62,674 bases of DNA from Coleofasciculus chthonoplastes F2-STO-03 (GTDB taxonomy: Bacteria > Cyanobacteriota > Cyanobacteriia > Cyanobacteriales > Coleofasciculaceae). Positions 2,589 through 56,967 of this stretch are shown piece after piece. The DNA lies in the NCBI GenBank assembly GCA_040222015.1, contig JAVJWO010000210.1, positions 1 to 62,674 of the forward strand. The letters run 5' to 3'. A program made the position numbers and the translations under genes. The stretch's first letter is position 1. Each line of letters begins with the position of its first letter. The notes under the pieces are model-generated. The model made no database searches. It was not told the DNA's origin and worked only from the letters and a program-made list of their open reading frames with translations.

Positions 2589-5225
2589 TCAATCCTCACA
2601 CTGCTTCTGACAGGCATCTAAATAAATTTGAGCCACTTGATCAACGGGATTAATATGTAAACACTCTTGGAATATTTGGGCGGCTTCTTTAAATAAATGT
2701 TTACTATACAGAAATAGAGCCTTCTCAAAATCAGGCTTTGTCATTAACTTTACCGAGCGAAGTTCTGGTGGATCTGCCTCAAATATTTCAAAAACCGATA
2801 CCATTTCACTTTTCCCCTTAACCTGAACTTGACCGATAATCCGGAAGGCATATTCAACCGGATGATTTAGCTGTAAAAACGTGTGGTGAGAAATTAGTAA
2901 GGATACCCCATACTCTTTCGTAAGCTGTTCTAAGCGAGCGGCTAAATTGACCGCATCACTAATCACAGTACCATCCATGCGATTGTGTCCGCCCACGGTT
3001 CCCAGCATCAGCGAACCGGTGTTAATCCCAATCCCAATCTGAATCGGCGGACGATCTGGACGTTGCCGCGTTTTATTATAATCAGTCAACCGATTTAACA
3101 TATCAATTCCGGCGCGAACCGCATCATCAGCACTACCATTAAATAGCGCCATAATCGCATCACCGATATATTTATCAATAAAGCCATCATGTTCAACAAT
3201 AGCGGGTTCCATGCGTGACAGATAGGCATTGATGAATTTAAAATTATCCTCTAAGCTCATCCGTTCTGAGAGAGTGGTAAAGGAACGAATATCTGAAAAT
3301 AGAATAGACATTTTCTTCTGCACCGCCTCGCCGAGTTTGACATCAACAATACTTTTTTTATCCAGCAATTCCAGGAAATTTTCTGGTACAAAACGTTCAT
3401 ACGCTTGATTCAGTTGCAGGAGTTGAGCCGTGAAATCCTTGCGTTCAGCTTCAGCTTTTTTACGTTCAGTAATATCTTGAAACGCCGCGATCGCAAAGGT
3501 TACTTTGCCCTTTTCAGCAAAAATCGGGATACCCCAAGCTTCAATCGGAATAATCTGATCGCCCTGGTGAATTTCAATGTCATCAGCCGTGGCACTTTCT
3601 CCCATTAACGCTTGCACTACCGGCAATAATTCCGCTGGGTAGAGTTGGTCAGTGCCAGCAATATAAAATTGATAAACCTCGGCAAATTGTTCAGCAAAGG
3701 TATCAGGAACCACGCCTTTACCCATTAACTGTTGCGCCCGTTGATTCAGGTAATAGGTTTTTCCGCTTGCATCTAATACCGCTACCCCAACCGGCACCGC
3801 TTCCAGGAATTGGGCTAATCGGCGTTCACTTTCTCGTGCGGCTTCTTCGGCTTGTTGATGTAACTCCTCCTCAATCGCATCGGAATGAGCTGTCGTGGTT
3901 TCCAGTAATATTTCTAAGTCAGCATTGTAGCGCTGTAATTCCCAGGTTTGGTAAAGCGCGATCGCCATTGATGATCCGATCAACGCCGCCATCGGGGAAA
4001 CCACGGGTAACCACCAATTAGCCAGAAACGCCCCATAACTGCCAACCACCAGAATACTACCCATGAAGAACGTGCCGAAACCGACAACCATCCATCGGGG
4101 AAAAATCCTATCCGCGAATTGGTTCGCTTGTTGGAGTTTCCAGCTTCCTCCAGCGCCAATCAAAGACCAGACGACAATCCATAACCACTCGACTGGATCA
4201 ATCCAAATTGTCAGCCAAGACAGTTGGTTTATTCTATCAATGAAAGGAATTAAAGGGCGTCCATCAATCGCCTTAATTAAAGGGCGTCCCGCCATCGCCC
4301 CACTAATGATCTGACTGGCGATATTGGCATGAATAATCACGCCCGGTGTTTGCTGACGCGAACCGATGGTATTTTGACTATAGGGTGTAAAGAATAAGTC
4401 GTTAGCACTTTGTCCGGTAGCGCCAATCAGAACAATGCGATCGCGCATCAAATCCGGTGATATCCGATTCTCTAAAATATCAGCAATGGATACAGTTTGG
4501 AAGTTCTCTTTCTGTCCGCGATAGTTTAAGAGGATTTGATAGCCACCCACATCAGCATTAACATAGCCACCCTCATTCCCTGTCAATGGCACAAATTCCA
4601 CCTTACCCAACTGCAAATGACTCTTGGCTTCATCCGTCATTTGCAGGGTAATCCCTTCGGCTTCTAGATACATTAACGCCAGCTTTACCCCTAATCCCAA
4701 GTGGATGGACTCATCGTCTAATTGGACAGACAGCAATCCGCGACGAACTTTGCCATCCGCATCCAAGACTAAATCAGCCATCGCCACTTGATCCCGTTGT
4801 TTTAGGGTTGGCGATGGTGCTACCGTTTCGCCCACGACTTTTTCCACACCAATCAGGTTCGGTGTAGACTTAAATACCTCGACTAATTCCTGATGACCCG
4901 GTTCGACTGGCAAATCACGGTACAAATCCAAGCCAATCGCCCTAGGCTGTTGGGCGTTTATTTTTCTAAGTAACTGTGCTAAGACCTGATCAGGAATGGG
5001 CCACGTCCCAATCTGGGTAATATCAGACTCATCAATGGTTACCACCAGAATCCGGGGGTCAAGGGGTTCTTGGGGACGCTGCTGAAAAAATTGGTCGAGT
5101 GTTGCCCATTCGAGAAGCTGAAACGAACCCGTCCAAGCCGTAGCGATTACCAATCCGGCGACAGTGGGGGCAGTGATCAGTACCCCTTGCCATTGAGAAA
5201 TATGCTGCTTGAGCTTTTGCCACAT
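2589..5225 (-). CDS. CHASE2-TM-PAS class III adenylate/guanylate cyclase
   Basis: CHASE2 motifs (WPIPD, AIGLDLYRD, PGVIIHA), three TM helices, a PAS domain, and cyclase motifs FSDIRSFT, DKYIGDAIMA and DAVNLAARLE. Confidence 0.92.
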   Translation of the reverse strand: MWQKLKQHISQWQGVLITAPTVAGLVIATAWTGSFQLLEWATLDQFFQQRPQEPLDPRILVVTIDESDITQIGTWPIPDQVLAQLLRKINAQQPRAIGLDLYRDLPVEPGHQELVEVFKSTPNLIGVEKVVGETVAPSPTLKQRDQVAMADLVLDADGKVRRGLLSVQLDDESIHLGLGVKLALMYLEAEGITLQMTDEAKSHLQLGKVEFVPLTGNEGGYVNADVGGYQILLNYRGQKENFQTVSIADILENRISPDLMRDRIVLIGATGQSANDLFFTPYSQNTIGSRQQTPGVIIHANIASQIISGAMAGRPLIKAIDGRPLIPFIDRINQLSWLTIWIDPVEWLWIVVWSLIGAGGSWKLQQANQFADRIFPRWMVVGFGTFFMGSILVVGSYGAFLANWWLPVVSPMAALIGSSMAIALYQTWELQRYNADLEILLETTTAHSDAIEEELHQQAEEAARESERRLAQFLEAVPVGVAVLDASGKTYYLNQRAQQLMGKGVVPDTFAEQFAEVYQFYIAGTDQLYPAELLPVVQALMGESATADDIEIHQGDQIIPIEAWGIPIFAEKGKVTFAIAAFQDITERKKAEAERKDFTAQLLQLNQAYERFVPENFLELLDKKSIVDVKLGEAVQKKMSILFSDIRSFTTLSERMSLEDNFKFINAYLSRMEPAIVEHDGFIDKYIGDAIMALFNGSADDAVRAGIDMLNRLTDYNKTRQRPDRPPIQIGIGINTGSLMLGTVGGHNRMDGTVISDAVNLAARLEQLTKEYGVSLLISHHTFLQLNHPVEYAFRIIGQVQVKGKSEMVSVFEIFEADPPELRSVKLMTKPDFEKALFLYSKHLFKEAAQIFQECLHINPVDQVAQIYLDACQKQCED

Positions 5226-5313
5226 TTAGGATGAGCAATCAAAATTAACATGAGTAGTCCCCTGATTGCTATGGCGAATCATTCTCTATTCCTTACTGTA
5301 GCTCAACTCAAGC

Positions 5314-5603
5314 TGAATCGTGGCTCAAGCAGTTTGACTCAACCCCATAGATTTAAATTCCCACTAAACTAGCCGAAATTTGATAGACCGTAGTGGCGTG
5401 GCACAGCTAAAATAGGGTTTTGTTTGTAGTAAGCACTTTAGTGCTATAACGCTTAGCTGGAGAGGGCTGAAGCCCTCACTACGAACCAATTCTAATCCAT
5501 CAATTAAGGTGTGCCACGCCAGTAGGGTGGGCATTGCCCATCAGCCTCAAGTCAGCAACATTCAGCTTAAATTCAGTTGAATCGTGGCTCAAGCAGTTTG
5601 ACT
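5314..5603. repeat. 26-bp direct repeat TGAATCGTGGCTCAAGCAGTTTGACT (5314-5339 and 5578-5603)
   Basis: Two identical copies read directly; they flank a REP/MITE cluster. Confidence 0.85.
5394..5521. mobile_element. 128-bp MITE with 12-bp TIRs inserted into a GTAG-REP
   Basis: TIRs are TGGCGTGGCACA (5394-5405) and TGTGCCACGCCA (5510-5521), with GTAG on both flanks. An uninterrupted copy of the target, ACCGTAGGGTGGGCATTGCCCA, is at about 20001. Confidence 0.75.
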
Positions 5604-5612
5604 TAACCTAAC

Positions 5613-5822
5613 CTAGTAACTATCTTCGCTGCCTACGGTATGCAGCGCTAAATCGTTATTAGCACGGTTGAGTCGATCCGCGATCGCGGATCGAAGTTTC
5701 AGCGTGATTGATGGCGTAGCCAATACCTCTTGGGCTTGTTCTCGGTAGATAGCACTGGTTACCGGATCAACTTGGTCAATTTTCTGTAAATTTGAAAATA
5801 CTGTATCCGCAGAAATGGTCAT
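5613..5822 (-). CDS. small hypothetical protein
   Basis: ORF MTISADT...AIADRLNRAN...EDSY with plausible helical composition; start codon uncertain (5822 or 5843). Confidence 0.6.
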   Translation of the reverse strand: MTISADTVFSNLQKIDQVDPVTSAIYREQAQEVLATPSITLKLRSAIADRLNRANNDLALHTVGSEDSY

Positions 5823-6117
5823 CGGATTAAACCCTTCCATCACATATAATTACGATCTTGACTTAAGTATCGAACGGATGGCAATAGGTGAATGATTAAA
5901 ATAAAACAAAAATTATTCGACACCCAACAAGGAGTTATCGCCACCCTCAACGCCTCACGCCAACGCTTTCAAGCCTGTCGAGAAGCGAATCAAGTGTTGT
6001 AAATCGTCCTCAAACCCTTACTGTTCCCTGTTCCCTGTTACACACCGAGCGAAGCCGAGGTGTTCCCTGTTCCCTAATCTCAACCGTTAACTTTAATTGT
6101 GTCCACCTACTTACATT

Positions 6118-7770
6118 ATGAAAATTCCCTTATCTCGTCAGAAACGGCAGATTATTCAATTTCTCGGTTTATTCTGTTGCTGTTGTATCCTGATTATTAG
6201 TTGTGGTGGGCAAAATACACCCACCGATAATACTACAAGTTCCGTCACTAGCATCAGTAGTCTTGAACGCATCGCTGTGGGTTCTGTTGCCAAACCCCGA
6301 ACCCTTGACCCCGCTGATGCCTATGAAGTGGCGATTAGTGATATTATTACCAGCTTAGGCGATCGCCTCTATACCTACGAGGGAGATACAGATACGCTTA
6401 TTCCTCAACTGGCGACAGAACTCCCGCAAGTCAGTGATGATGGGTTAACCTACACGATTCCTGTGCGTCAGGGTGTTACCTTCCATGATGGCACACCTTT
6501 TAACGCAGACGCCATGGCATTTTCCTTGAGGCGGTTTAGTGAAAACGGGGGTAAACCTTCCGCCCTACTTTCTAACATCATGGAATCGGTGGAAGCCACA
6601 GGGGAATACGAACTCACAATTAAACTAAAAAATGACTTTGCTCCCTTCCCTTACCTACTAGCCTTTCCTGGATTAAGTGCAGTTTCACCTCAAGCTTATG
6701 AAATTGGACAAGGCAAATTTAAACCCAATGATTTTGTGGGAACAGGTCCCTATAAACTGGTTTCCTTTGAACCAAATTTAGTCAAGGTAGATGTTTTTGA
6801 GGACTATTGGGGAGAAAAACCACCCAATCAAGGGATTGACTTTCAGTTTCTCAGCAGTCCCGCTAACTTGTACAATTCCTTTACCACAGGTGTGGTTGAT
6901 ATTGCCTATCGTGACTTAGATGCCGATCAAATTCTCAGCCTTAAAGAGGATGCTGAATCCAAAGGGTATCAGGTACTAGAAAAACCCAGCAGCCGCGTAG
7001 ACTACATGGTGCTAAATGTCAAGCAGAAACCCTTAGATCAGGTAGAAGTCCGACAAGCGATCGCGGCGTTAGTGGATCGCCCGTTAATCATTGATCGCGT
7101 CTATCGGGGTCAAGCGGAACCCGCTTACAGTATTATTCCCGACACCTTTGCCACCAGCAAACCGGTATTTAAAGAACCGTATGGGGATGGTAATGTGGAA
7201 AAGGCAAAAGAACTTTTAACCGAGGCAGGGTTTTCTGCTGAAAATCCGTTTGTACTGGAAATTTGGTACAGTTCCGATAGCCCTCAACGCCAACAAATTG
7301 TTACGCTTCTCAAGGAATATGCCGAGCAAAAAATGGAGGGTTTGATGCAAGTTCAACCGCAACCAGTTGAATCCACGACTCTCTTTGCCAATATTCCCAA
7401 AGGCATTTATCCCAGCTATTTAGTGGCTTGGTTTCCTGATTTTGGCGATGCAGATAATTACATCAGCCCCTTTTTCAGTTGTACGAAAGGAGCAGCGGAA
7501 ACTGGATGTCAGGAAGGAGCTAGTCAAAGTCAAGGTTTCTTCTATTACAGTGAGCAAATGAACCAACTCATTGATGCTCAACGAAAGGAACAAGATCCCC
7601 AGGCGCGACAAGAACTATTTGAGCAAATTCAATCGCTAATTGCTCAAGATGTGCCGCTGATTCCTTTGTTGCAGAAAAAAGAATTTGCGTTTGCTCAAGA
7701 CAACTTACAGAACTTGGAAATTAACCCAATTATCGGTATATCGTTTTGGCAGGTTGATAAAAATGCTTAA
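6118..7770 (+). CDS. peptide/nickel ABC transporter substrate-binding lipoprotein (family 5)
   Basis: Lipobox-like IISC, TLDPADAYE, TFHDGTPFNA and GTGPYKL motifs. Confidence 0.92.
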   Translation: MKIPLSRQKRQIIQFLGLFCCCCILIISCGGQNTPTDNTTSSVTSISSLERIAVGSVAKPRTLDPADAYEVAISDIITSLGDRLYTYEGDTDTLIPQLATELPQVSDDGLTYTIPVRQGVTFHDGTPFNADAMAFSLRRFSENGGKPSALLSNIMESVEATGEYELTIKLKNDFAPFPYLLAFPGLSAVSPQAYEIGQGKFKPNDFVGTGPYKLVSFEPNLVKVDVFEDYWGEKPPNQGIDFQFLSSPANLYNSFTTGVVDIAYRDLDADQILSLKEDAESKGYQVLEKPSSRVDYMVLNVKQKPLDQVEVRQAIAALVDRPLIIDRVYRGQAEPAYSIIPDTFATSKPVFKEPYGDGNVEKAKELLTEAGFSAENPFVLEIWYSSDSPQRQQIVTLLKEYAEQKMEGLMQVQPQPVESTTLFANIPKGIYPSYLVAWFPDFGDADNYISPFFSCTKGAAETGCQEGASQSQGFFYYSEQMNQLIDAQRKEQDPQARQELFEQIQSLIAQDVPLIPLLQKKEFAFAQDNLQNLEINPIIGISFWQVDKNA

Positions 7771-7850
7771 GCCTGTTACCTTAGCGCCGTGATTTCGACC
7801 TGATCAACTGGTTCAGACGGTTATGTACAGATGTGCATATTATAATTGAG

Positions 7851-8117
7851 ATGGTTTACCAGTGGAATCGGGACAAGGCAATAGCCAACCTTCGTAAACA
7901 TGGCATCGACTTTGCTGATGCAGTATCTGTTTTCTCGGATGCTCTGGCAATTTCCATTCTAGACGAGCGGTTTGATGAAGAACGATTCGTCACAATTGGG
8001 ATGGATGCTTTTGGCAGAATATTGGTAGTTGTCTACACGCTGCGGGATGATCAGATTCGGATTATTTCTGCCCGAAAAGCAACTCGGCAAGAACGACAGC
8101 AGTATGAGGAGGGATAA
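7851..8117 (+). CDS. brnT: BrnT family toxin (ribonuclease)
   Basis: W..DKAIANLRKHGIDF, EERFVTIG and RIISARKA motifs. Confidence 0.9.
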   Translation: MVYQWNRDKAIANLRKHGIDFADAVSVFSDALAISILDERFDEERFVTIGMDAFGRILVVVYTLRDDQIRIISARKATRQERQQYEEG

Positions 8118-8122
8118 TCTTC

Positions 8123-8380
8123 ATGGAAGCAGAATATGACTTTAGTCAAGGAAAACGGGGCGCTATTGACCCAACATCATTAGGCAAAACCCACATCACA
8201 ATCCGGCTAGATAATGAAATTCTCGCGTGGTTTCGTGAGCAAGTTCATAATGCAGGTGGAGGAAACTACCAAACCTTGATTAATGAAGCCTTACGCCAGC
8301 ATATTCAGCAAAACCGCCAATCTTTGGAGGACACCTTACGTAAAGTTGTGCGTGAAGAACTTGAGCGTATTGAGCGTTGA
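8123..8380 (+). CDS. brnA: BrnA family antitoxin
   Basis: EYDFSQGKRG, ITIRLD.EILAWF and YQTLINEALR motifs; lies directly after brnT. Confidence 0.9.
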   Translation: MEAEYDFSQGKRGAIDPTSLGKTHITIRLDNEILAWFREQVHNAGGGNYQTLINEALRQHIQQNRQSLEDTLRKVVREELERIER

Positions 8381-8697
8381 CACCAAATTCGCTTCAGAAA
8401 CCCCCTTTATTTTTTGGATACTTGTTTCGTTTATCCCTTCTGCCCTCTGCCATAGGTGAATCTCCTCTTCTTGTTGATACCCAGTCCCTGGGTGAATCTA
8501 TCTTGCTTAGGTGGGTCACTCTGCTACTGTGCAACACAACTACAATTGTGGATTAGATTTGCCGATTTTATGGGCGCAAAGCTTTGCGCCCCTACAGGTT
8601 GTGGATGTCGGGTTTGACATGCACCCAACTATAGCAATTCTATATAAGATTGCTATATAAACCTGTATTAATCCTACTCGCCATAATTTGAATTCGG

Positions 8698-9723
8698 ATG
8701 TCTCGTTCTCGTGCCTTACTCTACTATGTCATCGCCCGGTTGCTTCTCGCACCGTTAATGATGTTTACGATTGTTACTATCGTATTTTTACTCCTCCGCG
8801 CTACGCCAGGAGATCCAATTGATGCGGTCATTGGTAATCGTGCGCCTGAAAGTGTAAAAGCCGAATTTCGGGAACGGTTGGGATTAAATCAACCGTTACC
8901 TTTACAGTATGTGAATTATTTATTCAGTTTACTCCGCCTGGATTTAGGCAGTTCAATTAGTGACCAAGGACGAGATGTTTGGCAAGTGATTCAGCAATAT
9001 TTCCCCGCGACGGCAGAAGTAGCAATATGTAGTATGATCGTCGCGATAACGGTAGGAATTGGTGTGGGTATTTTTTCCGCCTCTCGTCCCGGTACAGTCT
9101 TTGATTTAGGGGGACGACTATTTGGGATTATCACCTACGCCTTACCGATATTTTGGGCAGGAATGATTGTCCAATTAATCTTTGCCGTACAGTTAGGATG
9201 GTTTCCCCTGGGTGGACGATTTCCGGCATCAGTAACTCCGCCCACAGGATTCACTGGACTGTATACAGTTGATAGTCTGTTGCAGGGGAATTTCAACCAA
9301 TTTTTTACAGCCTTATATTATTTAACTCTACCTTCGTTAACCTTAGGAATTCTCCTAAGTGGAATTTTTGAGCGTATTGTCCGGGTGAATCTCAAGCAAA
9401 CGCTGAAGTCTGATTATGTAGAAGCTGCACGCGCTAGAGGAATTCAGGAAGGGACAATTTTGCTGCGTCATGCGTTGAAAAATGCCTTGATTCCGGTGAT
9501 TACAGTAATGGGTCTTACGTTTGCTTCATTACTAGGGGGTGCGGTGTTAACAGAAGTGACCTTTTCCTGGCCCGGATTAGCCAATCGATTATATGAAGCG
9601 ATTCAGTTACGAGATTACCCGACGGTGCAGGGAATTATGGTGTTTTTTGGGGCAATTGTGGTGATAGCGAGTATTGCGATTGATATTATCAATGCTTTAA
9701 TTGACCCGCGTATTCGCTATTAA
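8698..9723 (+). CDS. peptide ABC transporter permease (DppB/OppB family)
   Basis: PGDP, LGLNQPL, EAA loop DYVEAARARG, C-terminal DPRIRY. Confidence 0.93.
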   Translation: MSRSRALLYYVIARLLLAPLMMFTIVTIVFLLLRATPGDPIDAVIGNRAPESVKAEFRERLGLNQPLPLQYVNYLFSLLRLDLGSSISDQGRDVWQVIQQYFPATAEVAICSMIVAITVGIGVGIFSASRPGTVFDLGGRLFGIITYALPIFWAGMIVQLIFAVQLGWFPLGGRFPASVTPPTGFTGLYTVDSLLQGNFNQFFTALYYLTLPSLTLGILLSGIFERIVRVNLKQTLKSDYVEAARARGIQEGTILLRHALKNALIPVITVMGLTFASLLGGAVLTEVTFSWPGLANRLYEAIQLRDYPTVQGIMVFFGAIVVIASIAIDIINALIDPRIRY

Positions 9724-43969: not shown

Positions 43970-44260
43970 GGAAATTGGCGACAATTTTATGGATCTGAGT
44001 CAGCTCGCCTGGAAAGCCGCACCAATGGGGGTGTTTGTTAGATTGAATTTACTCGACTGAGGCAGTCTGGAAGTGAAGACAGAAGGAGTAGCCCAGTGAT
44101 ACAGACTCTTCGTTGCATATCTTCTCTGGCTTACCTGTTCCATCATCCAGACACGGGGGGATCGCTTCTGTAACTGAAATCGCGTCTTCACAAGCCTTGT
44201 GAAGGACAGGATGTTTTTGGGTAACATTGGAGAAAGGGAGCAACTGACTCAATTGAAAAA

Positions 44261-45331
44261 ATGGATGCTAAAAATGTTTTGAAGTCTTATCCGGAGAAAG
44301 CAAGGATTTTTCCTGAAGTATACCCTAGTCACACTAACCTAGAACAGGTAACCTCAAAAAGAAATCAACTGTACACTGACGAGCGTACGCCACTGCCAAA
44401 TTGGGGAACTTTTTTCATTGAGCTAGGTCGTCGTATTGCAGAATGGGGAACTGGCTCAAATCGGTTAGTAGTGGCACTTGCTATTCCTACTAGAGCTTAC
44501 GCTGCCGCCTTAACTGCCTTTGGTGTAGTCCTTACAAGAGCTACTCTTTCCAATTCTCATATTGAGGATACGAACAAGTATTTTGAGCGACTATGTAATT
44601 TATCCCAAGGTACACCTGTCACTTTCTTCTACAAAGGCAGAAAGTTTCAAGGTTTTTATGAAGGTGTTGATAAAATCAGTGGTCAACAGCGACTTAGGAT
44701 TCGAGTTGAAAGCCGCGAGACAGGGGGATTAACCTATCTAGTGCCGTTAGAAGAAGCTCACAAGATTGAAATTAGAACTACTCCTATACGAAATCTTCCT
44801 AAAAAGCAAAATGGCAGAAAATTTTTTACTCACAGTAAATTTATTGAGGATATTATTGGTGTAGAGAAAGCTAAGAGTTGCTTTAAAAAATCTCAGATTG
44901 ATTGTATACTTTTGGGCAAAAGAAATATTTTAAAGAAAGAAATAACGCAAACAAATTTTGCGGGAAGTCCATCATTTAAAAAAAAAGGAGTATTGCAAGA
45001 TGTGTTACGAGTGCGACATTTTTTCTCGACTGACAACCTAGCTTATCGTTCAGAGGTGTTTTCAGTTACGGCTAGAAAACGTCCTCGTCTATCAGATAGC
45101 ACAATTCCCTTTGTAACTATATTTGATGGTGCATCTAGTTTTATTAAATGGCGGGATGACTGGCGTAGTTGTCACTGGATTATCTTATTGGATAGAACAG
45201 AGATACATTTTCAAGAAGCAGTTGATATCGTCAATCAGGATTATATAAATCGTGTAGATGAAGAGGGAATACCAAATTTGCCATCGCGCCCCCCTGGAGT
45301 TGAACTTGTTAATTATCAGGAAGCAGATTAA
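44261..45331 (+). CDS. uncharacterised protein, first gene of the DISARM-like cassette (possibly the N-terminal half of a DrmE-like protein)
   Basis: 356-aa AT-rich ORF whose stop overlaps the next start (TAATG). Degenerate strand-Asp motifs (VTIFDG, IILLDR) but no intact Walker A. Confidence 0.7.
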   Translation: MDAKNVLKSYPEKARIFPEVYPSHTNLEQVTSKRNQLYTDERTPLPNWGTFFIELGRRIAEWGTGSNRLVVALAIPTRAYAAALTAFGVVLTRATLSNSHIEDTNKYFERLCNLSQGTPVTFFYKGRKFQGFYEGVDKISGQQRLRIRVESRETGGLTYLVPLEEAHKIEIRTTPIRNLPKKQNGRKFFTHSKFIEDIIGVEKAKSCFKKSQIDCILLGKRNILKKEITQTNFAGSPSFKKKGVLQDVLRVRHFFSTDNLAYRSEVFSVTARKRPRLSDSTIPFVTIFDGASSFIKWRDDWRSCHWIILLDRTEIHFQEAVDIVNQDYINRVDEEGIPNLPSRPPGVELVNYQEAD

Positions 45332-46896
45332 TGATTGATATGTCTCTGTCAGACGTTAGAAAAATTTACGATTGTAGCAACCGTGTCAAAATTACATATC
45401 ATCCAGTAGAACAGAGCAACTTTGAATATTTTTGTGTGGCACTCAAAAATTTTAAGCGTTTGCTGAATGAAGCTGCTGAAGATGATTACTGGAGAGATTT
45501 TTTGTATCCTCTAAGACGGTATCAATTTGAATTATGTGCATCACCGTTACCATTTAATACTACCTCAGCATCTGACTATATAAACTTAGCGAATCTTCAG
45601 AAACAACTGTCACGCCTGAAACTTAGTTATCCAGATTTGTTTTTACCTGCTAGTGAGATTTTAAGTCAACTAGATATTTTATCAAATTCTTCTTCAAATC
45701 CTCTTTTATCTATTTATTCATCAATATATAAATCTAACAAACAAAGAAAGATAGTTTTACTACTAAAAGAATCACGCCTGATACCTCCAGTAGAAGAATT
45801 AATATCTCAAATTAATTTACTAAACACAGTAAAAGTTATCGTCGCTTCACAACTTCGTAGTTTGGTCTGCTATGACAAAGTAATTCTTATTGGTTCCCCA
45901 TATTGGTTTCCCAAATACGTTTTAACAGCACCGCGTACTTCGGAGATTGATATAGTGTACTATCGTTGGATTAGAAGTAAATGGAAAGACGAACCCGTAT
46001 TTATTGGTTCAGTTAACTCCTCTCAGTCACCGATTAATACTGAAATAAAAAATACTGTGAAAGAAGTTCAACCCAAGATAGATAGTGAGATAATTGCCGC
46101 TAAACTAGAACCCAAAGATGTTTTAATGCCTACTATTGACTGGAGCGATATAAGCCAGAAAATTAGTCAGTTACATTCCGTTAATAGTGATAGGGAAGAA
46201 ATAGAAGCAAAGCTGTTCCTCTTAGAAGGAAGTACATCGGCTGTTTTTTTAGATAGAGAGGCTAAAACATTTGTTATAGATCTACAAGAAGAAGTTAGTT
46301 CAAGGGTACAGAGAATTTCTGTCGCTGATATCGAAGCGGATATGTTCATCCTATTACGGACAAGTGGTGGTGGTGATTACATTGTGCCTGTAGCCAATCG
46401 GATTTTAAAGAACTCAGGAAAAGATGTGGAAAAGATTAGAAACTTGCAACAAGAGTGGAAAGGTCGTCTGAAACTAGCTGTAAAGCGTCAAGGTTTACAT
46501 TCTGTTAGTCAAAATCTGGTTAAACAAGGTTCTAAAATAGCCAAGAATGAACTTAATATCCGAAACTGGATGTCTGAGTTAAGTATTAAACCTAGAAAAG
46601 AAAAAGACTTTGAAGCAATTTTAAATTTTGTAGGATTGGGGGATAGATGCAATGAATTTTATGAAGCGGCATATTGGCTGGATACATCTCACAGAAGCGC
46701 TGGTAAACATATTCGGAAGTTACTGCTTCAGGAAGTTTGTAATGCTGATCTCACTCAACTAGAACAACTAGGCAGCATGGAATTTGAACTAGAGCAAGCA
46801 GATGGAGGTAGTATGACGGCTTTCAGAGTAGTAGATATTGCTCCAGAAATTCATAATATTTCTATCTCCAAAATTGCACAGATTTTTGAAATTTAG
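45331..46896 (+). CDS. uncharacterised protein, tentatively DrmE-like C-terminal region
   Basis: 521 aa, 12 bp upstream of the helicase. The C-terminal pattern (FILLR..., WK.RL, IRNW...IKPR..DFEAI) recalls DrmE-type proteins. Confidence 0.65.
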   Translation: MIDMSLSDVRKIYDCSNRVKITYHPVEQSNFEYFCVALKNFKRLLNEAAEDDYWRDFLYPLRRYQFELCASPLPFNTTSASDYINLANLQKQLSRLKLSYPDLFLPASEILSQLDILSNSSSNPLLSIYSSIYKSNKQRKIVLLLKESRLIPPVEELISQINLLNTVKVIVASQLRSLVCYDKVILIGSPYWFPKYVLTAPRTSEIDIVYYRWIRSKWKDEPVFIGSVNSSQSPINTEIKNTVKEVQPKIDSEIIAAKLEPKDVLMPTIDWSDISQKISQLHSVNSDREEIEAKLFLLEGSTSAVFLDREAKTFVIDLQEEVSSRVQRISVADIEADMFILLRTSGGGDYIVPVANRILKNSGKDVEKIRNLQQEWKGRLKLAVKRQGLHSVSQNLVKQGSKIAKNELNIRNWMSELSIKPRKEKDFEAILNFVGLGDRCNEFYEAAYWLDTSHRSAGKHIRKLLLQEVCNADLTQLEQLGSMEFELEQADGGSMTAFRVVDIAPEIHNISISKIAQIFEI

Positions 46897-46908
46897 GCAA
46901 AGGTAATA

Positions 46909-49900
46909 ATGGCTAAACATATACAAAACAGAGAAAATATCATTCAATTTTTACGAGAAGAACTTGTCGGATCTTCACCCCAAGGAGAACCCAAAGACTG
47001 TTCTGGGGAAGTAAATTTCCAATCTGAACAAGAATTCTATCGTCCTTGGCGGCAAGCAAATGGTGAAGAGATTCTTCAGCGAGACCCTCCTCTAGTTCGC
47101 TATGGCGTAGGTGTTCTTTATCCACTGGGTAAAAAACATGAAGACGAAGAATCTCAGAAAGACAGGGAAACCGATGAAATTAAACCTGATGAAACTGAAT
47201 CTGTGATTGAAGAAAATGCCTATCAAAGTCTTGAAGAAAGTCAAAAAGAGATAACAAAGAGTACGGAAAGTGAATCAGATAATTTTGACTTGTCAACAGC
47301 TAATACCTATCTACCTAGTAGCATGGGTGTAAGTTTTTTAGGAGAATTTCATCAAGATTCACAGCTATTGGTTAAAGCCTGGGGTGGGTGCTATCGAGCC
47401 AAAATTGTTAAAGTGTCCGGAAAGGAAAGAACTTGGTGGTTGAGGAAACCCATAGAATTTACAGTTGAGTTCGATGGCAATCAACTCTGCCATCAACAAG
47501 AAAAGAGACTTAATCAAACTGCGAAAATACAGGGACTAGATTTGAGCGTAGAAGTATTTTCTCGACCCGATCCAGAAAAACGAGAGGGAGTTCGTCTAAT
47601 CACAGTTTGTCTAGTTAATCGCAGTAGTAGTGGTGTTCTTGGTCGTCATGAAATAAATTTATTCCAGTCAGGCTTTGAAGCCACTCTAGTTTCCCAAAAG
47701 GGAGAGGCGCACATTTTACCCTATCCAGGTCAACGTCTCTCTGGGATTGAAGATGATGAGGAAGAGCAATCTCTGGCGCTGCTTTACCGTCACATGAAAA
47801 CGTATGGGGTGGGACATGGTTGTGCAGCAAATTGGGATAAAGAAGCGACTAATGACCGAGTTAAAACTGTCATAGCTGAGTGCTTGCCTACTTTTGAAAC
47901 TCCTAGTATTACGCCTGGCATAAAACGTGAGGATGGTAGTAGCTTAGAAGTCCCTATGGCTACCTTAGCCGGGTTAGTGGAGGGCGACGATGGCTTTGCT
48001 GCTTTGCAGGAAGTTGTTGAACGCTACGAGAATTGGATCGAGGTGAAACGAAATGAAATTACCACGCTTGAGGAACAATACCATAATGCAGCACGCAGTC
48101 ACTTGGATGAATGTGAAAGAGCGGCTCAGAGAATGAGAGATGGGCTAAATTACTTACAGCATGATACTAGAGCCAAGAGAGCGTTTCAATTAGCCAACCA
48201 TGCCATCTTACTGCAACAGATTAGCAGTCGCGGTAGTCTTCGGAGGGCAAACTACGATAAAAAAGCCAGAAAGTTGAATTTTTCTGCACCCTATCAAGCG
48301 CCTAATTCCCTGCAAGCTGGAGAAAATAGGGGTAAATGGCGTGCATTTCAAATCGCTTTCCTACTCATGTCTCTTGAATCTACTGCTCAGGGGAATAGTC
48401 CAGAGCGTGAGACAGTTGAACTGATTTGGTTTCCTACAGGTGGTGGCAAAACTGAAGCCTATTTGGGTTTGTCAGCGTTTGCTCTATTCATGCGACGGTT
48501 GAACAACAAAGATGATGCTGGAGTTCATGTGCTGATGCGCTACACGCTCAGGTTGTTGACAGCACAACAGTTTCAGCGAGCGTCAGCATTATTATGTGCA
48601 ATGGAGTACCTCCGTCGCCAACATCCTGAACTGGGGAAAGACTCTTTTTCTATTGGGATTTGGCTGGGGAGTGCGACAACCCCTAATACTCGGAAAGATG
48701 CAGTCTATAGCTTGAATCAACTACAAAGGAGTTCATCAGCAGAAAATCCTTTTATTATTGGCAAATGCCCTTGGTGCAACGCTCAGATGGGGCGTTATGA
48801 TGGACAACTACCAAGGGGAGTCCCAAAGGTTTTAGGATATCAGCCAAGTGCTGGTACTGTAGTTTTCAAATGTCCCGATCAGGCTTGTGAGTTTAAAAAT
48901 GGACTTCCTATTTATGTCATTGATGAGGACATTTATTACTATCGTCCTTCGTTAGTTATTGGTACAGTAGATAAGTTTGCCCAGTTAGCTTGGAAGCCGA
49001 AAGCACGGGCTTTATTTGGCATTGACTCTGATGGGCAACGGCAAAATTCTCCACCAGGACTAATTATTCAAGATGAGTTACACCTGATTTCGGGTCCTTT
49101 GGGCTCAGTTGTGGGGCTATATGAAACGGTGATTGAAGAACTTTGTACCGACAGGCGTGGTGAGCAAGCAATTAAACCAAAAATAGTTTGTTCTACCGCA
49201 ACCATACGCCGCTATGCTGACCAAGTGAAAGCGCTCTATGGACGAGAGGATGTAGTATTGTTTCCACCACCAGGATTAGATGCGTCGGATTCATTTTTCT
49301 CTCGCTATGCCAGAAATGAGGATGGCACATTACGATCCGGTCGAATTTATGTAGGTGTTCATGGACCGGGTTTGAAATCTTTGCTCACGGCTCAAGTACG
49401 AACATCAGCAGCTCTTTTGCAAGCGCCAGTTCCTTTGACTGCTGAGGAACAAGACCCTTGGTGGACTTTACTAATGTTCTTTAATAATCTCAGGGAATTG
49501 GGCTTTACGCTTTCCCTGTTGCAGTCAGATATTCCTGGTCACTTTAAGGTAATCCAAAATCGGCTCGGTTTGGACAGGCAACAAACACGCCGCATCTGGC
49601 AACCGTTGGAACTGACTGGGCGTATCCGCAGCGATCAAGTTCCTGAAGCGATCGCCAAACTAGAGATTAAATGTGATAACACAAATAATCAGCATCCGAT
49701 AGATGTCTGTTTAGCGTCTAACATTATCGAAGTCGGGGTTGATATCGACCGCCTATCGCTTATGGCTGTAGTGGGTCAGCCTAAAACTACGTCTCAGTAT
49801 ATTCAGGTGACAGGTCGTGTGGGGCGTAGATGGTGGGAACGTCCTGGTTTGGTTGTAACGTTGTATAGTCCTACCCGCCCCCGCGATCGCTCCCATTTTG

Positions 49901-50379
49901 AGAAATTTCGTAGCTATCACGAACGGCTTTATGCCCAAGTTGAACCCACCAGCGTTACTCCCTTTTCTCCCCCAGTCTTAGACCGTGCCTTACACGCAAT
50001 TATGGCAGCTTATGTCAGACAAGCCGGAGATGAAGAGATAGCAAAAAGCCCAGATCCGTATCCAGACAATCTGATTGAGCAGTTACGGGAAATTCTCATA
50101 CCTCGAATAGAAGCCATCGATCTAAATGAGGTAGAAAATTTCCAACGGGTTTTTGACAAACGTGCCTCAGAATGGCAGCGCTGGCAAAGAACACATTGGC
50201 AAGGAACTCGCCAAACCGCCGATGACATCTCTTTGCTAAGAGTTGCAGGTGATTACGCTAGTCCAGAATGGCAGCGTTTATCTTGGGCTACACCGACATC
50301 TATGAGAAACGTAGACGCAGAATGCCAAGCGGAAATTACTCAACTTTACTTACTTGAAGGAGGGGAAGAAAATGCCTAA
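46909..50379 (+). CDS. drmA: DISARM DrmA-like SF2 helicase
   Basis: YGVGHGCAANW, Q-motif WRAFQ, Walker A FPTGGGKTEAY, RYTLRLLTAQQ, Zn site CPWC...CPDQAC, QDELH, STAT, EVGVDI, QVTGRVGR, RPRDRSHFE and SMRNVD. Confidence 0.88.
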   Translation: MAKHIQNRENIIQFLREELVGSSPQGEPKDCSGEVNFQSEQEFYRPWRQANGEEILQRDPPLVRYGVGVLYPLGKKHEDEESQKDRETDEIKPDETESVIEENAYQSLEESQKEITKSTESESDNFDLSTANTYLPSSMGVSFLGEFHQDSQLLVKAWGGCYRAKIVKVSGKERTWWLRKPIEFTVEFDGNQLCHQQEKRLNQTAKIQGLDLSVEVFSRPDPEKREGVRLITVCLVNRSSSGVLGRHEINLFQSGFEATLVSQKGEAHILPYPGQRLSGIEDDEEEQSLALLYRHMKTYGVGHGCAANWDKEATNDRVKTVIAECLPTFETPSITPGIKREDGSSLEVPMATLAGLVEGDDGFAALQEVVERYENWIEVKRNEITTLEEQYHNAARSHLDECERAAQRMRDGLNYLQHDTRAKRAFQLANHAILLQQISSRGSLRRANYDKKARKLNFSAPYQAPNSLQAGENRGKWRAFQIAFLLMSLESTAQGNSPERETVELIWFPTGGGKTEAYLGLSAFALFMRRLNNKDDAGVHVLMRYTLRLLTAQQFQRASALLCAMEYLRRQHPELGKDSFSIGIWLGSATTPNTRKDAVYSLNQLQRSSSAENPFIIGKCPWCNAQMGRYDGQLPRGVPKVLGYQPSAGTVVFKCPDQACEFKNGLPIYVIDEDIYYYRPSLVIGTVDKFAQLAWKPKARALFGIDSDGQRQNSPPGLIIQDELHLISGPLGSVVGLYETVIEELCTDRRGEQAIKPKIVCSTATIRRYADQVKALYGREDVVLFPPPGLDASDSFFSRYARNEDGTLRSGRIYVGVHGPGLKSLLTAQVRTSAALLQAPVPLTAEEQDPWWTLLMFFNNLRELGFTLSLLQSDIPGHFKVIQNRLGLDRQQTRRIWQPLELTGRIRSDQVPEAIAKLEIKCDNTNNQHPIDVCLASNIIEVGVDIDRLSLMAVVGQPKTTSQYIQVTGRVGRRWWERPGLVVTLYSPTRPRDRSHFEKFRSYHERLYAQVEPTSVTPFSPPVLDRALHAIMAAYVRQAGDEEIAKSPDPYPDNLIEQLREILIPRIEAIDLNEVENFQRVFDKRASEWQRWQRTHWQGTRQTADDISLLRVAGDYASPEWQRLSWATPTSMRNVDAECQAEITQLYLLEGGEENA

Positions 50380-52282
50380 AGGACCTATTAGACGCGCCCA
50401 ATTAATTGCACCTTATGGGGTGGGTGCAATGATAGTCGTGAGGGATGGAACATCATTGATTACGGCTGGTTTAGATCACTGGTACGAGCGTGAAAATGGT
50501 CGTGATGATGTTGACCGCTCAGAATTTAGAGTCGAGGAATGGCGGTTGGCACAGCAGTTAGGAGTGGATCACTTCCGACTTCCCCCAGACTTTAGAATAA
50601 TTAAAGGGGAATCAGTTCCTAATGCCTATCTCACCATCCCGTTTCTACGCTTTCCTCAATGGCATTACTGTCAATACTGCGGACACCTTAAGGAGTTGAA
50701 ACTGCCTCAACGGAGTAAAGAAAAATGCCCCAAATGTGAAGAGCAGAAAAGAAATAGGTACTTGGTGCAGGTTCCGATTATTGCAATGTGCGATCGCGGT
50801 CATATTCAAGACTTTCCTTGGCGCGAGTGGGTACATCGTTCTGACAATCCAACTTGCAAAAAACCAATGCGTTTGGTAGGGACAGGGAGCGCAACTTTAG
50901 GAGGATTGAGTGTTCAGTGTGAGTGTAAAGCGAAACGCTCTCTAGCCAATATTACTGAAACGCGACCTGGAGATAATGGAAGTGAAACCACATTTCTTAG
51001 TAAACATCTTAATGAAAAGCATGATGATGATTCTGATCGTCAGGAGTTTCTCTGTCAAGGCAAACGTCCTTGGTTGGGGACTGAAGAAAGTGAACCTTGT
51101 TCTCGACCCTTGAGAGGTTCCCTCCGCAGTGCGTCTAATGTATATTACTCTCAGGTACGGAGCGCCATTTATCTAAAAAGGGGCAATGATAGCGAACTAA
51201 TTTCTATTCTGGAAGAACCACCTATTTCAACGCTAATCGAACTACTAGCTAAAGGGAACGTTGATCTAATAACACCAGATTGTTTGCGAGGGCAACACCC
51301 ACAACTGTTGCAACCATTCTCCAATGAGGATATTAAAGTTGCCCTAAACGGTATACTCTCAGAAGAAGATAACAACTCAGACGAGATTTTTGTTGAGGGG
51401 GATGATCCAGAAACCCATTTCCGTCGTCCAGAATTTAACGTGCTGCGTACTGAACGTGACGAAAAGCAACTTAAAATCAGAAAGATTGATTTGAATGACT
51501 ACGATCCAGATATAGCCCAATACTTCTCCCAAATCATGCTAGTTGACAAGCTGAGGGAAACTAGAGCTTTAACTGGATTCACCCGGATTTTTCCGGAAAA
51601 TGAGCAAAATATAAATTTATTACAAGCGCTGCTGCGGCGCAATCCCTTACCACCACAGGATTCATGGTTGCCTGCTTATGTAGTTTATGGTGAAGGCATT
51701 TTTTTGGAGTTCAATGAGAGGCGACTTCAGCAGTGGTTAATTCAAACTGGCGATGCAGTTCAACAGCGAATTCAACCTCTAGTACAACGTTACCAACAAG
51801 TACAAGAAAAAAGGCACTTACGCGATCGCCCTCTCATGCCGCGATTCATCCTTTTACACACCTTTGCTCACTTGATCATGAATCGTCTCACCTTCGAGTG
51901 TGGGTATAGTTCGGCTGCTCTGCGAGAAAGATTATATATATCCGATAATCGCGAGGCTCCCATGGCTGGGGTTCTGATTTATACTGCTGCTGGGGATTCC
52001 GAGGGAACAATGGGAGGACTGGTGCGGATGGGTAAACCCGATTATTTTGAGCCAATGTTTCATGCAGCACTTGAGGATGCTAAATGGTGTTCTGCCGATC
52101 CTGTTTGCATGGAAATCGGTGCTAGGGGGGGACAAGGACCTGATTCATGTAACTTGGCGGCTTGCCACAACTGCTCTTTAGTGCCTGAAACAGCCTGTGA
52201 GGAATTCAACCGCTTTTTGGATCGAGGGGTTGTTGTCGGTGATATCAACAACCGTAGCCTTGGTTTTTTTTACCTAAGATGA
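50372..52282 (+). CDS. drmB: DISARM DrmB-like DUF1998 protein
   Basis: RRAQLIAPYGVGA, CQYC..CPKC and C.RGH..DFPW, then DUF1998 motifs HTFAH, CSADPVC and AACHNC..VPETACE.FN..LDR; overlaps drmA by 8 bp. Confidence 0.9.
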   Translation: MPKGPIRRAQLIAPYGVGAMIVVRDGTSLITAGLDHWYERENGRDDVDRSEFRVEEWRLAQQLGVDHFRLPPDFRIIKGESVPNAYLTIPFLRFPQWHYCQYCGHLKELKLPQRSKEKCPKCEEQKRNRYLVQVPIIAMCDRGHIQDFPWREWVHRSDNPTCKKPMRLVGTGSATLGGLSVQCECKAKRSLANITETRPGDNGSETTFLSKHLNEKHDDDSDRQEFLCQGKRPWLGTEESEPCSRPLRGSLRSASNVYYSQVRSAIYLKRGNDSELISILEEPPISTLIELLAKGNVDLITPDCLRGQHPQLLQPFSNEDIKVALNGILSEEDNNSDEIFVEGDDPETHFRRPEFNVLRTERDEKQLKIRKIDLNDYDPDIAQYFSQIMLVDKLRETRALTGFTRIFPENEQNINLLQALLRRNPLPPQDSWLPAYVVYGEGIFLEFNERRLQQWLIQTGDAVQQRIQPLVQRYQQVQEKRHLRDRPLMPRFILLHTFAHLIMNRLTFECGYSSAALRERLYISDNREAPMAGVLIYTAAGDSEGTMGGLVRMGKPDYFEPMFHAALEDAKWCSADPVCMEIGARGGQGPDSCNLAACHNCSLVPETACEEFNRFLDRGVVVGDINNRSLGFFYLR

Positions 52283-52312
52283 TATCCCTACTTGAAGTGA
52301 GCATTCACAATC

Positions 52313-52401
52313 AGGAGTTACGCACCACCACCATAACTATTGGTCAAGGTGCGTTACGCTGCGCTAACACACCCTACCGATAGAGGCTTTGCGTAAGTCC
52401 T
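52313..52401. mobile_element. 89-bp MITE-like element
   Basis: TIRs AGGAGTTACGCA and TGCGTAAGTCCT (11/12 match), with an internal hairpin GGTGCGTTA..TAACACACC. Confidence 0.65.
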
Positions 52402-52535
52402 ACCAATGTTAACGATCTGGACTATAGATACACTTATTTGGGAAACTAATTGAATAGCTAAACCTGCTTCATTATATAGAAAATATTTAGGGACGCACCG
52501 ACGTGCGCCCCTACCCATCCTGTTGATAATGCTCA

Positions 52536-52745
52536 CTATTTTTTCGCCAGATCAGGGATAACCAACATAAACAGAATACCGAAAACAATAATAGCCAGAG
52601 CTTGTTCTGTGGTCAGTAGATTCGGTCTGACCAAATACAAGACAGCAAAGCCAAGCAACGCAATTGTCAGATTCCGAGACAGCAGCCCCGGCATTACCAG
52701 AGTCGCAATGATGCAAAATGCGATTATTGCAATGGCTACTTCCAT
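52536..52745 (-). CDS. small membrane protein
   Basis: 69 aa, almost entirely hydrophobic helices; AGGAA upstream of the ATG. Confidence 0.6.
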   Translation of the reverse strand: MEVAIAIIAFCIIATLVMPGLLSRNLTIALLGFAVLYLVRPNLLTTEQALAIIVFGILFMLVIPDLAKK

Positions 52746-55986: not shown

Positions 55987-56967
55987 TCATTTGGTTTCCT
56001 CTGGTGAGGGAGAAGAAGAATCCGGAGACCAAACCCCACGATCAACCGTCATCGATATAATTCCAGCAATGGCAGCGGCTATTCCCAGAATTCCCCCCAC
56101 TATTTTCCCCACCTTCACCCATTCCGCCTTCGTTTGCGGAAATCCAGGAACCCTTATCCCCCGCCTGATTCCCAATAACGCTAACCACTCCTCCATTGTT
56201 TGCGGGCGATCGCCATATTCCAATTTCATACCCTGGACAATCGACTGATTCACCCGCTCAGAAATATCAAACTTTAGCGTCTTCGGTTCAACTAACTCAA
56301 CAATATCATCCAAACGATCTAACGCCGTTGCGGGAAATTTCCCCGTGAGTAAAACATACAATGTTGCAGCTAATGAATAAACATCCGTATACGCCCCCCG
56401 TTCTCGGTTTGTTGAACTTAACTCCACCGGGGCGAATTGCTTATCTTTCCAACGGGAAGTTAACGGATTATTAAACTCCCCCGCTAAATCAAAATCAATC
56501 AGCACCGCCTGCTGCTTTCCGGCGCGTACCATAATATTCTCTGGCTTCACATCCCGATGCAGCAATCCCTGTTGATGCACCTCAATTAGCGCTTCACCCA
56601 CCTGCTGGATATAAACCAAGGCTTCCTTTTGGGGTATGGGTAGCGTCAAGTCAGAGAGTTTAATCCCGGCGATATACTCCATCACAATACAAAAAATTTG
56701 CGCCTCTTTAAACGTGCGGTAAACTCGGACAATATGAGGATGTTTGCAGCGTTCCAGCTTCAGCGCCTCATCACAAAACTTTGACTCGATGCTAGTTTGT
56801 TCTGCATCTGGAAGGTGACTGAGAATATCCTGATTTAGGGTTTTGACGACAAAATCCTTTCCGGTATCATCCTGAACCCGATAGGTAATCGCACAACGTC
56901 CTCGTCCTAATTCCTGTTGTATCGTGTACTTGCCATTTTGTAACGTCTGTCCCGTTGTCCAAGCCAT
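55987..56967 (-). CDS. Hanks-type Ser/Thr protein kinase with C-terminal TM helix
   Basis: LGRG, VVK, HRDVKPEN, LIDFD and TDVYSLA motifs. Confidence 0.92.
   Translation of the reverse strand: MAWTTGQTLQNGKYTIQQELGRGRCAITYRVQDDTGKDFVVKTLNQDILSHLPDAEQTSIESKFCDEALKLERCKHPHIVRVYRTFKEAQIFCIVMEYIAGIKLSDLTLPIPQKEALVYIQQVGEALIEVHQQGLLHRDVKPENIMVRAGKQQAVLIDFDLAGEFNNPLTSRWKDKQFAPVELSSTNRERGAYTDVYSLAATLYVLLTGKFPATALDRLDDIVELVEPKTLKFDISERVNQSIVQGMKLEYGDRPQTMEEWLALLGIRRGIRVPGFPQTKAEWVKVGKIVGGILGIAAAIAGIISMTVDRGVWSPDSSSPSPEETK

Follow-up and report, generated by a model that had tools for sequence, protein, structure and literature searches.

A four-gene cassette of Coleofasciculus chthonoplastes is an unnamed variant of DISARM with a putatively split DrmE

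[quoted passage not shown] The four open reading frames (ORFs), namely ORF1, ORF2, drmA (ORF3) and drmB (ORF4), are real, intact and under purifying selection. The ORF list and the sequence bear out the initial annotation of four co-oriented, tightly coupled ORFs, in which ORF1 and ORF2 share a TAATG overlap and a 12-bp gap precedes drmA. The annotation had further assigned drmB an 8-bp overlap with drmA and a length of 642 aa; the overlap holds with the ATG at 50372, which gives a product of 636 aa, whereas 642 aa requires the TTG at 50354 and a 26-bp overlap. The DrmB proteins of two related loci (L024 and L098) begin at MPKGP, the counterpart of the ATG at 50372. The GC contents of ORF1 and ORF2 are 0.385 and 0.352, respectively, compared to 0.454 for the genome. 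The flanks are also as annotated, with the divergent rplC on one side and a short repeat, a minus-strand hydrophobic ORF of 69 aa and gyrA on the other. No gene for a methylase, a phospholipase D (PLD) or a NERD protein was found in the cassette or its flanks.

By sequence comparison, ORF3 and ORF4 are DrmA and DrmB, in agreement with the core proposed for the cassette at the outset. ORF3 matches the DrmA model of PADLOC with an E-value of 7e-217 and the DrmA structure in PDB 7s9v with an E-value of 2e-140, and scores 936 bits against NCBIfam DISARM_DrmAS, just below the cut-off of 950. The helicase motifs are intact (PTGGGKT at 509, DELH at 722, STAT at 762 and QVTGRVGR at 966), and an acidic stretch sits at the position of the trigger loop. 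ORF4 scores 439 bits against NCBIfam DrmB_fam (cut-off 240), matches DrmB of PDB 7s9v with an E-value of 5e-72, and retains the C-terminal cysteines. The locus thus has both core components, a drmA helicase gene and a separate drmB (DUF1998) gene that follows it.

The two leading genes had been described as uncharacterised and as two distinct accessory subunits. The window's own ORF1 and ORF2 proteins indeed fall short of the NCBIfam and PADLOC models of DrmE, but ORF2 attains the cut-off of Pfam DrmE_C (27.0 of 27 bits). NCBIfam DrmE_fam is matched by 61 of 75 ORF2 homologues, with E-values up to 0.1; these matches span positions ~330 to 836 of the 838 in the model, and as they start at ~330, they leave an N-terminal gap of the size of ORF1. 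Using hhalign and a set of 13 proteins with a fused DrmE, the ORF2 profile aligned to residues 340-869 of fused DrmE (E-value 3e-24), and the ORF1 profile aligned, in order, to residues 82-321 over 215 columns, with an E-value of 2.4e-5, a probability of 75.5 and a score of 45.4. In controls, the score did not exceed 18.5 with 60 block shuffles or 20.5 with three unrelated profiles, and was 15.0 with the reversed alignment. The in-order alignment to the two parts of DrmE led us to reject new families for ORF1 and ORF2. None of 8000 candidates proved to be a longer relative of ORF1, which is weak evidence, and the ESM Atlas gave no usable ORF1 match.

The predicted models of ORF1 and ORF2 have pLDDT (predicted local distance difference test) values of 84.5 and 86.1, respectively. 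The ORF1 model resembles helicase domain 1, a RecA1-like lobe, with a middling fold Z of 7-8 that we did not use alone; the model and the fold search also place a Tudor-like barrel, inserted at about residues 115-170. The N-terminal half of ORF2 resembles the helical insert and domain 2 (RecA2-like) of Hef, Dicer and RIG-I-like helicases, with a Z of 10.6-10.8 and a root-mean-square deviation of 3.6-6.7 over 189-213 residues, and is followed by DrmE_C. At the sites of Walker A and B, ORF1 holds PTRAYAA (residues 76-82) and FDG (residues 288-290), both conserved among homologues; we read them as degenerate Walker motifs, apparently conserved in a dead form. A GxxGK[ST]-like string occurs in only 1 of 69 ORF1 homologues, 1 of 75 ORF2 homologues and none of the 13 fused DrmE proteins, and ORF1 and ORF2 together lack the GKT and DE of an active superfamily 2 (SF2) helicase.

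A complex of ORF1 and ORF2 was predicted with a score of 0.81, compared to 0.00 for the best control; the runs agree on at least 88% of the contacts, and the partner pLDDT is at least 79. The mark used for this score is attained by 116 of 157 solved pairs and 2 of 215 mismatched pairs. The predicted interface contains invariant residues of both chains, Pro76 and Thr313 of ORF1 and Tyr13 of ORF2, in addition to the nearly invariant Phe224 of ORF2. The predicted complex supports binding between the two proteins, bearing in mind that halves of split genes tend to pass such a prediction through their likeness to solved helicases. Altogether, the profiles, the DrmE_fam matches and the predicted heterodimer indicate, at the level of sequence and model, that ORF1 and ORF2 are a split DrmE, forming the two lobes of a helicase fold devoid of ATPase motifs, in place of two separate accessory subunits.

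Table 1. Features of the cassette and its borders in the window.
Feature	Position	Strand	Basis
ORF1, putative N-terminal half of split DrmE, 356 aa	44261..45331	+	profile alignment, model, fold searches, motif conservation, predicted complex
ORF2, putative C-terminal part of split DrmE, 521 aa	45331..46896	+	Pfam DrmE_C, NCBIfam DrmE_fam, hhalign, fold search
drmA, SF2 helicase, 1156 aa	46909..50379	+	PADLOC, NCBIfam, PDB 7s9v, motifs
drmB, DUF1998/MZB protein, 636 aa	50372..52282	+	NCBIfam DrmB_fam, PDB 7s9v
5' end of mobile segment, cassette leader	44048..44260	+	identity with L022 and L029 begins at 44048; run contigs
Short multi-copy repeat, like a miniature inverted-repeat transposable element or repetitive extragenic palindrome	52310..52405 (about)	.	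115 blastn matches of 52291-52460 in the genome
3' junction; window meets conserved chromosome directly, L022 instead enters the 5' end of a 5-methylcytosine (5mC) methylase	52450..52460	.	

Relatives of the cassette were collected as 73 loci fetched by one or two short patterns, from 7 genomes and 66 metagenome contigs; this sample is biased and holds some near-duplicates (L067/L068 and L077/L080). ORF1 lies upstream of ORF2 in all 52 loci with room for it, and the proposed order of ORF1, ORF2, drmA and drmB does recur. In most relatives, however, a gene encoding a NERD nuclease fused to a UvrD helicase, overlooked in the initial annotation, is inserted between ORF2 and drmA: of 64 readable loci, 54 have it next after ORF2 and 10 have drmA there instead. 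The cassette had also been taken for a methylase-free system, whereas a 5mC methylase stands beside 24 of the 26 full cassettes having at least 1 kb of upstream and 1.4 kb of downstream sequence (27 of 31 full cassettes in the fetched flanks, counting the stub in the closest relative, L022). The absence of drmC, in contrast, extends to the relatives, as two DrmC queries gave no tblastn match in 80 split-type loci, a search of moderate sensitivity in that the two queries match each other only at an E-value of 7e-4. A Pfam scan of 69 neighbours found a single PLD protein, encoded by a 559-aa gene two places upstream. Thus, of the recurrence envisaged without methylase or drmC, only the part on drmC stands. 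HhH-GPD glycosylases or Vsr often follow, and by sequence the full form of this branch is drmE-N, drmE-C, NERD-UvrD, drmA, drmB and a 5mC methylase, often with HhH-GPD or Vsr, and without drmC.

The branch comprises 796 clusters at 50% identity (E-value under 1e-30). Screens of 400 other genomes from the phylum and 400 from the order found the ORF2 family in none and 1, respectively, and none of 75 pattern matches in viral contigs could be confirmed as phage carriage. No PADLOC model matched the ORF2 family in the six members scanned, so many copies have probably been reported as incomplete. We found no description of a split DrmE or of this branch in the literature searched; one study notes uncharacterised DISARM-like classes, and its supplements may tabulate the branch (10.1101/2025.09.15.676423). 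Type II or IV nucleases of the TdeIII, Eco47II, XcyI, Mrr/AspBHI and HNH families stand beside several cassettes. A copy on a Bacillus plasmid (L100) lies amid fragments of methylases and restriction enzymes, and a Priestia copy (L102) has a split ORF2. In L026, L038, L040, L045, L056, L065-L068, L072, L074, L076, L077, L080, L081, L085 and L089, an HhH-GPD glycosylase adjoins the methylase where Vsr would be expected, and it probably repairs G:T mismatches that arise from deamination of 5mC. AIPR proteins adjoin drmB or sit between the methylase and drmE in several loci (L039:17465-19570, L124:11401-13434 and, by likeness to L124, L127:5883-7937).

Most NERD-less cyanobacterial copies form one clade with a support of 100 in the DrmB, DrmA and ORF2 trees (FastTree or quick IQ-TREE, the ORF2 tree being the quick version), nested among NERD-bearing loci. 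It unites the window with the copies of Coleofasciculus, Scytonema and Rivularia, those of Nostoc plasmids and several metagenome loci; further NERD-less copies lie outside it (L038, L058, L063, L100 and L102). From the tree topologies, the cyanobacterial clade lost NERD-UvrD once, and as its NERD-less copies group together, the four-gene core without a nuclease is a stable lineage. Among ten clade copies, three have an intact adjoining methylase (L023, L030 and L031) and L022 has a stub; none is nearby in the window, L024, L098 and L099/L159, and L029 and L033 lack the flank. In the tree, the copies without a methylase are scattered among the tips and do not form a clade, and one of them has an insertion sequence (IS) between ORF1 and ORF2. 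Separately, 2 kb upstream of the cassette in L099 (Nostoc plasmid AP018322), positions 4622-8985 encode a reverse transcriptase of 753 aa and a partner of 696 aa, possibly another defence system.

Of 9 genomes of the genus, 2 carry the segment 44048-52454. L022 has it at the same site with 96.7% identity, and the identity of the window with both L022 and L029 begins at 44048. Contigs of all four sequencing runs include a piece that starts at 44048, and those of DNA runs X2 and X6 leave the window at 52454, the X6 contig running 1662 bases further. Where the identity to L022 ends, L022 enters a frame that shares 62% identity with the Scytonema cassette's adjoining methylase over residues 29-107, and of which residues 106-276 are 92% identical to a helix-turn-helix (HTH) gene resident at the same site in another genome (G1016). 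These data suggest that the ancestor had a methylase right after drmB, which would have been lost after arrival at the rplC-gyrA hotspot, and in the window copy the loss appears recent. The repeat downstream of drmB occurs in L022 too and is not specific to the system.

The rplC-gyrA interval (window 44030-52460; L150-L153) is a cargo hotspot in the genus. It holds one small gene in G859, a DUF6932 and HTH pair in G1016, genes for DUF5591, GmrSD_N and HEPN together with a two-ORF DpdJ-like helicase in G1066, and the present cassette plus a 1572-aa metallophosphoesterase-TPR-macro protein in G1095. The 69-aa hydrophobic ORF before gyrA (52536-52745, minus strand) is not part of the system, since its region is conserved in genus members without the cassette. 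Downstream of gyrA lies a Ser/Thr-kinase-like ORF called by motifs (55987-56967, minus strand).

All four frames and their motifs are intact in both the window and L022 despite a synonymous divergence (dS) of up to 0.19. Against L022 and L029, the ratio of nonsynonymous to synonymous substitution rates (dN/dS) is 0.16-0.34, except for ORF2 against L022 (0.66, 17 changes). The window-specific changes comprise 52 nonsynonymous and 54 synonymous ones (pN/pS 0.28, p 1e-10), and pN/pS is 0.23-0.28 on every branch. Contigs of two RNA runs cover the cassette at a depth of about 2-43, compared to 400 on the flanks, although contigs cannot show transcription.

The genome of the strain (G000) contains an unlinked, motif-intact 5mC methylase gene (G000:C171:30254-31435) and a class 1 DISARM locus with drmD, drmMI, drmA, drmB and drmC (G000:C52, about 91200-107150; L157 and L158), so that two DISARM classes coexist in one genome; the look for a stray drmC or drmM that had been proposed for the rest of the genome thus yielded both a drmC, within the class 1 system, and an unlinked methylase. 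The three intact clade-adjacent methylases group with that of C171 at 100/95, which is 72% identical to the one of L030, and their restriction partners are TdeIII- and Eco47II-family enzymes. We take TdeIII to recognise GGNCC, and the clade of the C171 methylase is presumably Sau96I-like. Eco47II is likewise associated with GGNCC (PMC10305163). The target of the C171 methylase is probably GGNCC/GGWCC and not HIP1; GGWCC is depleted in the genome, with an observed/expected ratio of 0.42-0.44 (about 2.3-fold). The initial annotation had raised reliance on host methylation of GATC or CGATCG (HIP1); such reliance remains conceivable in general, and the HIP1/GATC version was rejected, as we found no link of those motifs to the cassette and the methylases adjoining the relatives are of another clade. 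In G000, two queries (TdeIII- and Eco47II-like) found no restriction partner for the C171 methylase, and the search for a NERD-UvrD in trans detected no NERD gene and gave only helicase-domain matches. The 5mC methylase family has 11 matches in G000, in about 10 genes, and GGCC is nearly absent (622 observed against 21647 expected, overlapping words). In the C52 locus, drmMI is in two ORFs (1148 and 308 aa), drmA (941 aa) is shorter than usual at the N-terminus, and a DUF559 gene and a 708-aa UvrD-like ORF are also present.

Compared to class 2 DISARM of the Bacillus paralicheniformis type (drmE-drmA-drmB-drmC-drmMII), the window has homologues of DrmE, DrmA and DrmB in the same order, and its relatives share a 5mC methylase. 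It differs in that DrmE is divided between two genes, drmC has no room in the locus and occurs only unlinked on C52, and no drmMII is linked to this copy; moreover, NERD-UvrD and an HhH-GPD glycosylase or Vsr are additional genes in most relatives. DrmC is described as dispensable and often missing (PMC9142583), so its absence alone is not new. With class 1 of Serratia sp. SCBI (PDB 7s9v/7s9w), the cassette shares the DrmAB core with its helicase motifs: the Serratia trigger loop (residues 176-232) aligns with the acidic stretch of the window DrmA, and Val1135 matches Serratia Val1296 by offset. However, DrmD, DrmMI and DrmC are missing, with no such ORFs in the locus (those of this genome belong to C52), and a DrmE-type accessory is found instead. 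Loci with a fused DrmE (L096 and L117-L128) encode it in one gene of 816-940 aa, and their DrmA and DrmB sequences branch outside the split clade; 12 of the 13 have Dcm, 8 NERD-UvrD and 1 a DrmC-like PLD. In this last locus (L122:7072-17398), an N6/N4 methylase replaces Dcm, and DrmA and the gene at the drmB position are very divergent. The YprA-family systems ARMADA, Druantia, Dpd, BRIGADE and TALON share a YprA-like helicase with DUF1998, but 10.1101/2025.09.15.676423 states that only DISARM consistently has the two as separate genes. They are separate in the window, which lacks BrxHII and PglX genes and any ARMADA partner.

We consider it somewhat more probable than all alternatives together that the cassette belongs, in reduced form, to an unnamed DISARM branch resembling class 2, with a DrmAB motor, a dead-helicase DrmE adaptor and a host methylase that marks self in trans. 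This reading draws on Serratia DrmAB, for which trigger-loop autoinhibition, loading on 5' overhangs and damping of the ATPase by 5mC are described (PMC9142583), and on class 1 and class 2 genetics, the latter taken from second-hand sources (PMC9142583, 10.1101/2021.12.28.474362 and PMC9252829). According to the second of these, class 1 tolerates methylase loss, whereas class 2 needs drmA, drmB and drmE, the last being of unknown function, and is harmed by loss of drmMII. DrmAB would load onto 5' single-stranded overhangs of incoming DNA, its ATPase being damped by 5mC as in Serratia, and the DrmE heterodimer would serve as a DNA-binding adaptor with the shape of a helicase but a dead ATPase. 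Self would be marked in trans by an unlinked host 5mC methylase, for which the C171 enzyme is the best candidate; invader DNA may be unwound and thereby blocked, or a nuclease recruited in trans, such as the class 1 DrmC of C52, may cut it. Lacking drmC and a linked drmMII, the cassette falls outside strict class 2, yet it would work like class 2. We infer every step of this mechanism, and the anti-phage function is a prediction.

Several observations weigh against this reading. The ORF1-DrmE match is modest, and the ORF1 profile did not match one single fused DrmE sequence. The methylase stub of L022 could be an independent insertion, and the purifying selection may date from before the methylase was lost. 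The methylases beside the cassettes fall into several clades across the branch, and two of the three intact ones adjoining the clade face the cassette with a restriction enzyme of their own, so they may be island neighbours. The C171-type clade is held by all five cassette-bearing genomes searched; it is also common elsewhere, being found in 16 of 41 genomes of the family, 23 of 201 of the phylum (counts obtained with different E-value cut-offs) and 6 of 8 of the genus, so finding it in trans is not statistically informative. A host methylase acting in trans is thus a lead and not proof.

Of the competing explanations, the foremost, which we regard as unlikely though worth keeping in view, is a four-protein system independent of methylation, in which the trigger loop of DrmA and the pseudo-helicase DrmE sense DNA structure, neither methylase nor nuclease being needed. 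The four of eight clade members with sufficient flank that have no methylase nearby, the purifying selection and the cited tolerance of class 1 to methylase loss and dispensability of drmC all fit it. Yet 24 of 26 relatives keep the methylase, loss of drmMII is harmful in class 2, and the methylase-less copies are scattered tips, one of them interrupted by an IS. A second alternative is a recently disabled remnant, left with four silent or useless but still undecayed genes after deletion of the methylase at a turnover hotspot. It is favoured by the swapping of cargo among genus members, with the cassette in so few of them, by the broken methylase of L022, the fragments around L100 and the split ORF2 of L102, and by the restriction of expression data to contigs; the intact frames and motifs in the window and L022 at their synonymous divergence, and the low pN/pS on every branch, make it a fairly remote prospect. 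The least probable is that the cassette assists restriction-modification or the resident class 1 DISARM as a helper, its helicases processing DNA ends left by a Type II enzyme or lending new specificity to DrmC and doing little alone. Type II or IV nucleases do adjoin several cassettes, and the genome has a class 1 system with drmC; however, the nucleases vary by locus and are often absent, and the queries used detected no TdeIII- or Eco47II-like enzyme in G000. The reading with a methylase in trans consequently ranks above these three.

What is new here is a cyanobacterial clade without a nuclease in the cassette, the stub of a methylase, a candidate methylase in trans and the predicted heterodimer. 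It is conceivable, if doubtful, that the cassette is a working nuclease-free four-protein cyanobacterial DISARM, with a split, ATPase-dead, Hef/RIG-I-shaped DrmE sensor that bears a Tudor-like barrel and reads host GGNCC/GGWCC methylation or none; if true, it would be the smallest DISARM and give a first handle on the role of DrmE. The natural split provides two soluble-sized halves of DrmE with a fold assignment and a predicted interface. Moreover, the natural deletions of nuclease and methylase open two questions on DISARM, namely how invaders are destroyed without DrmC and whether class 2 self-protection needs methylation.

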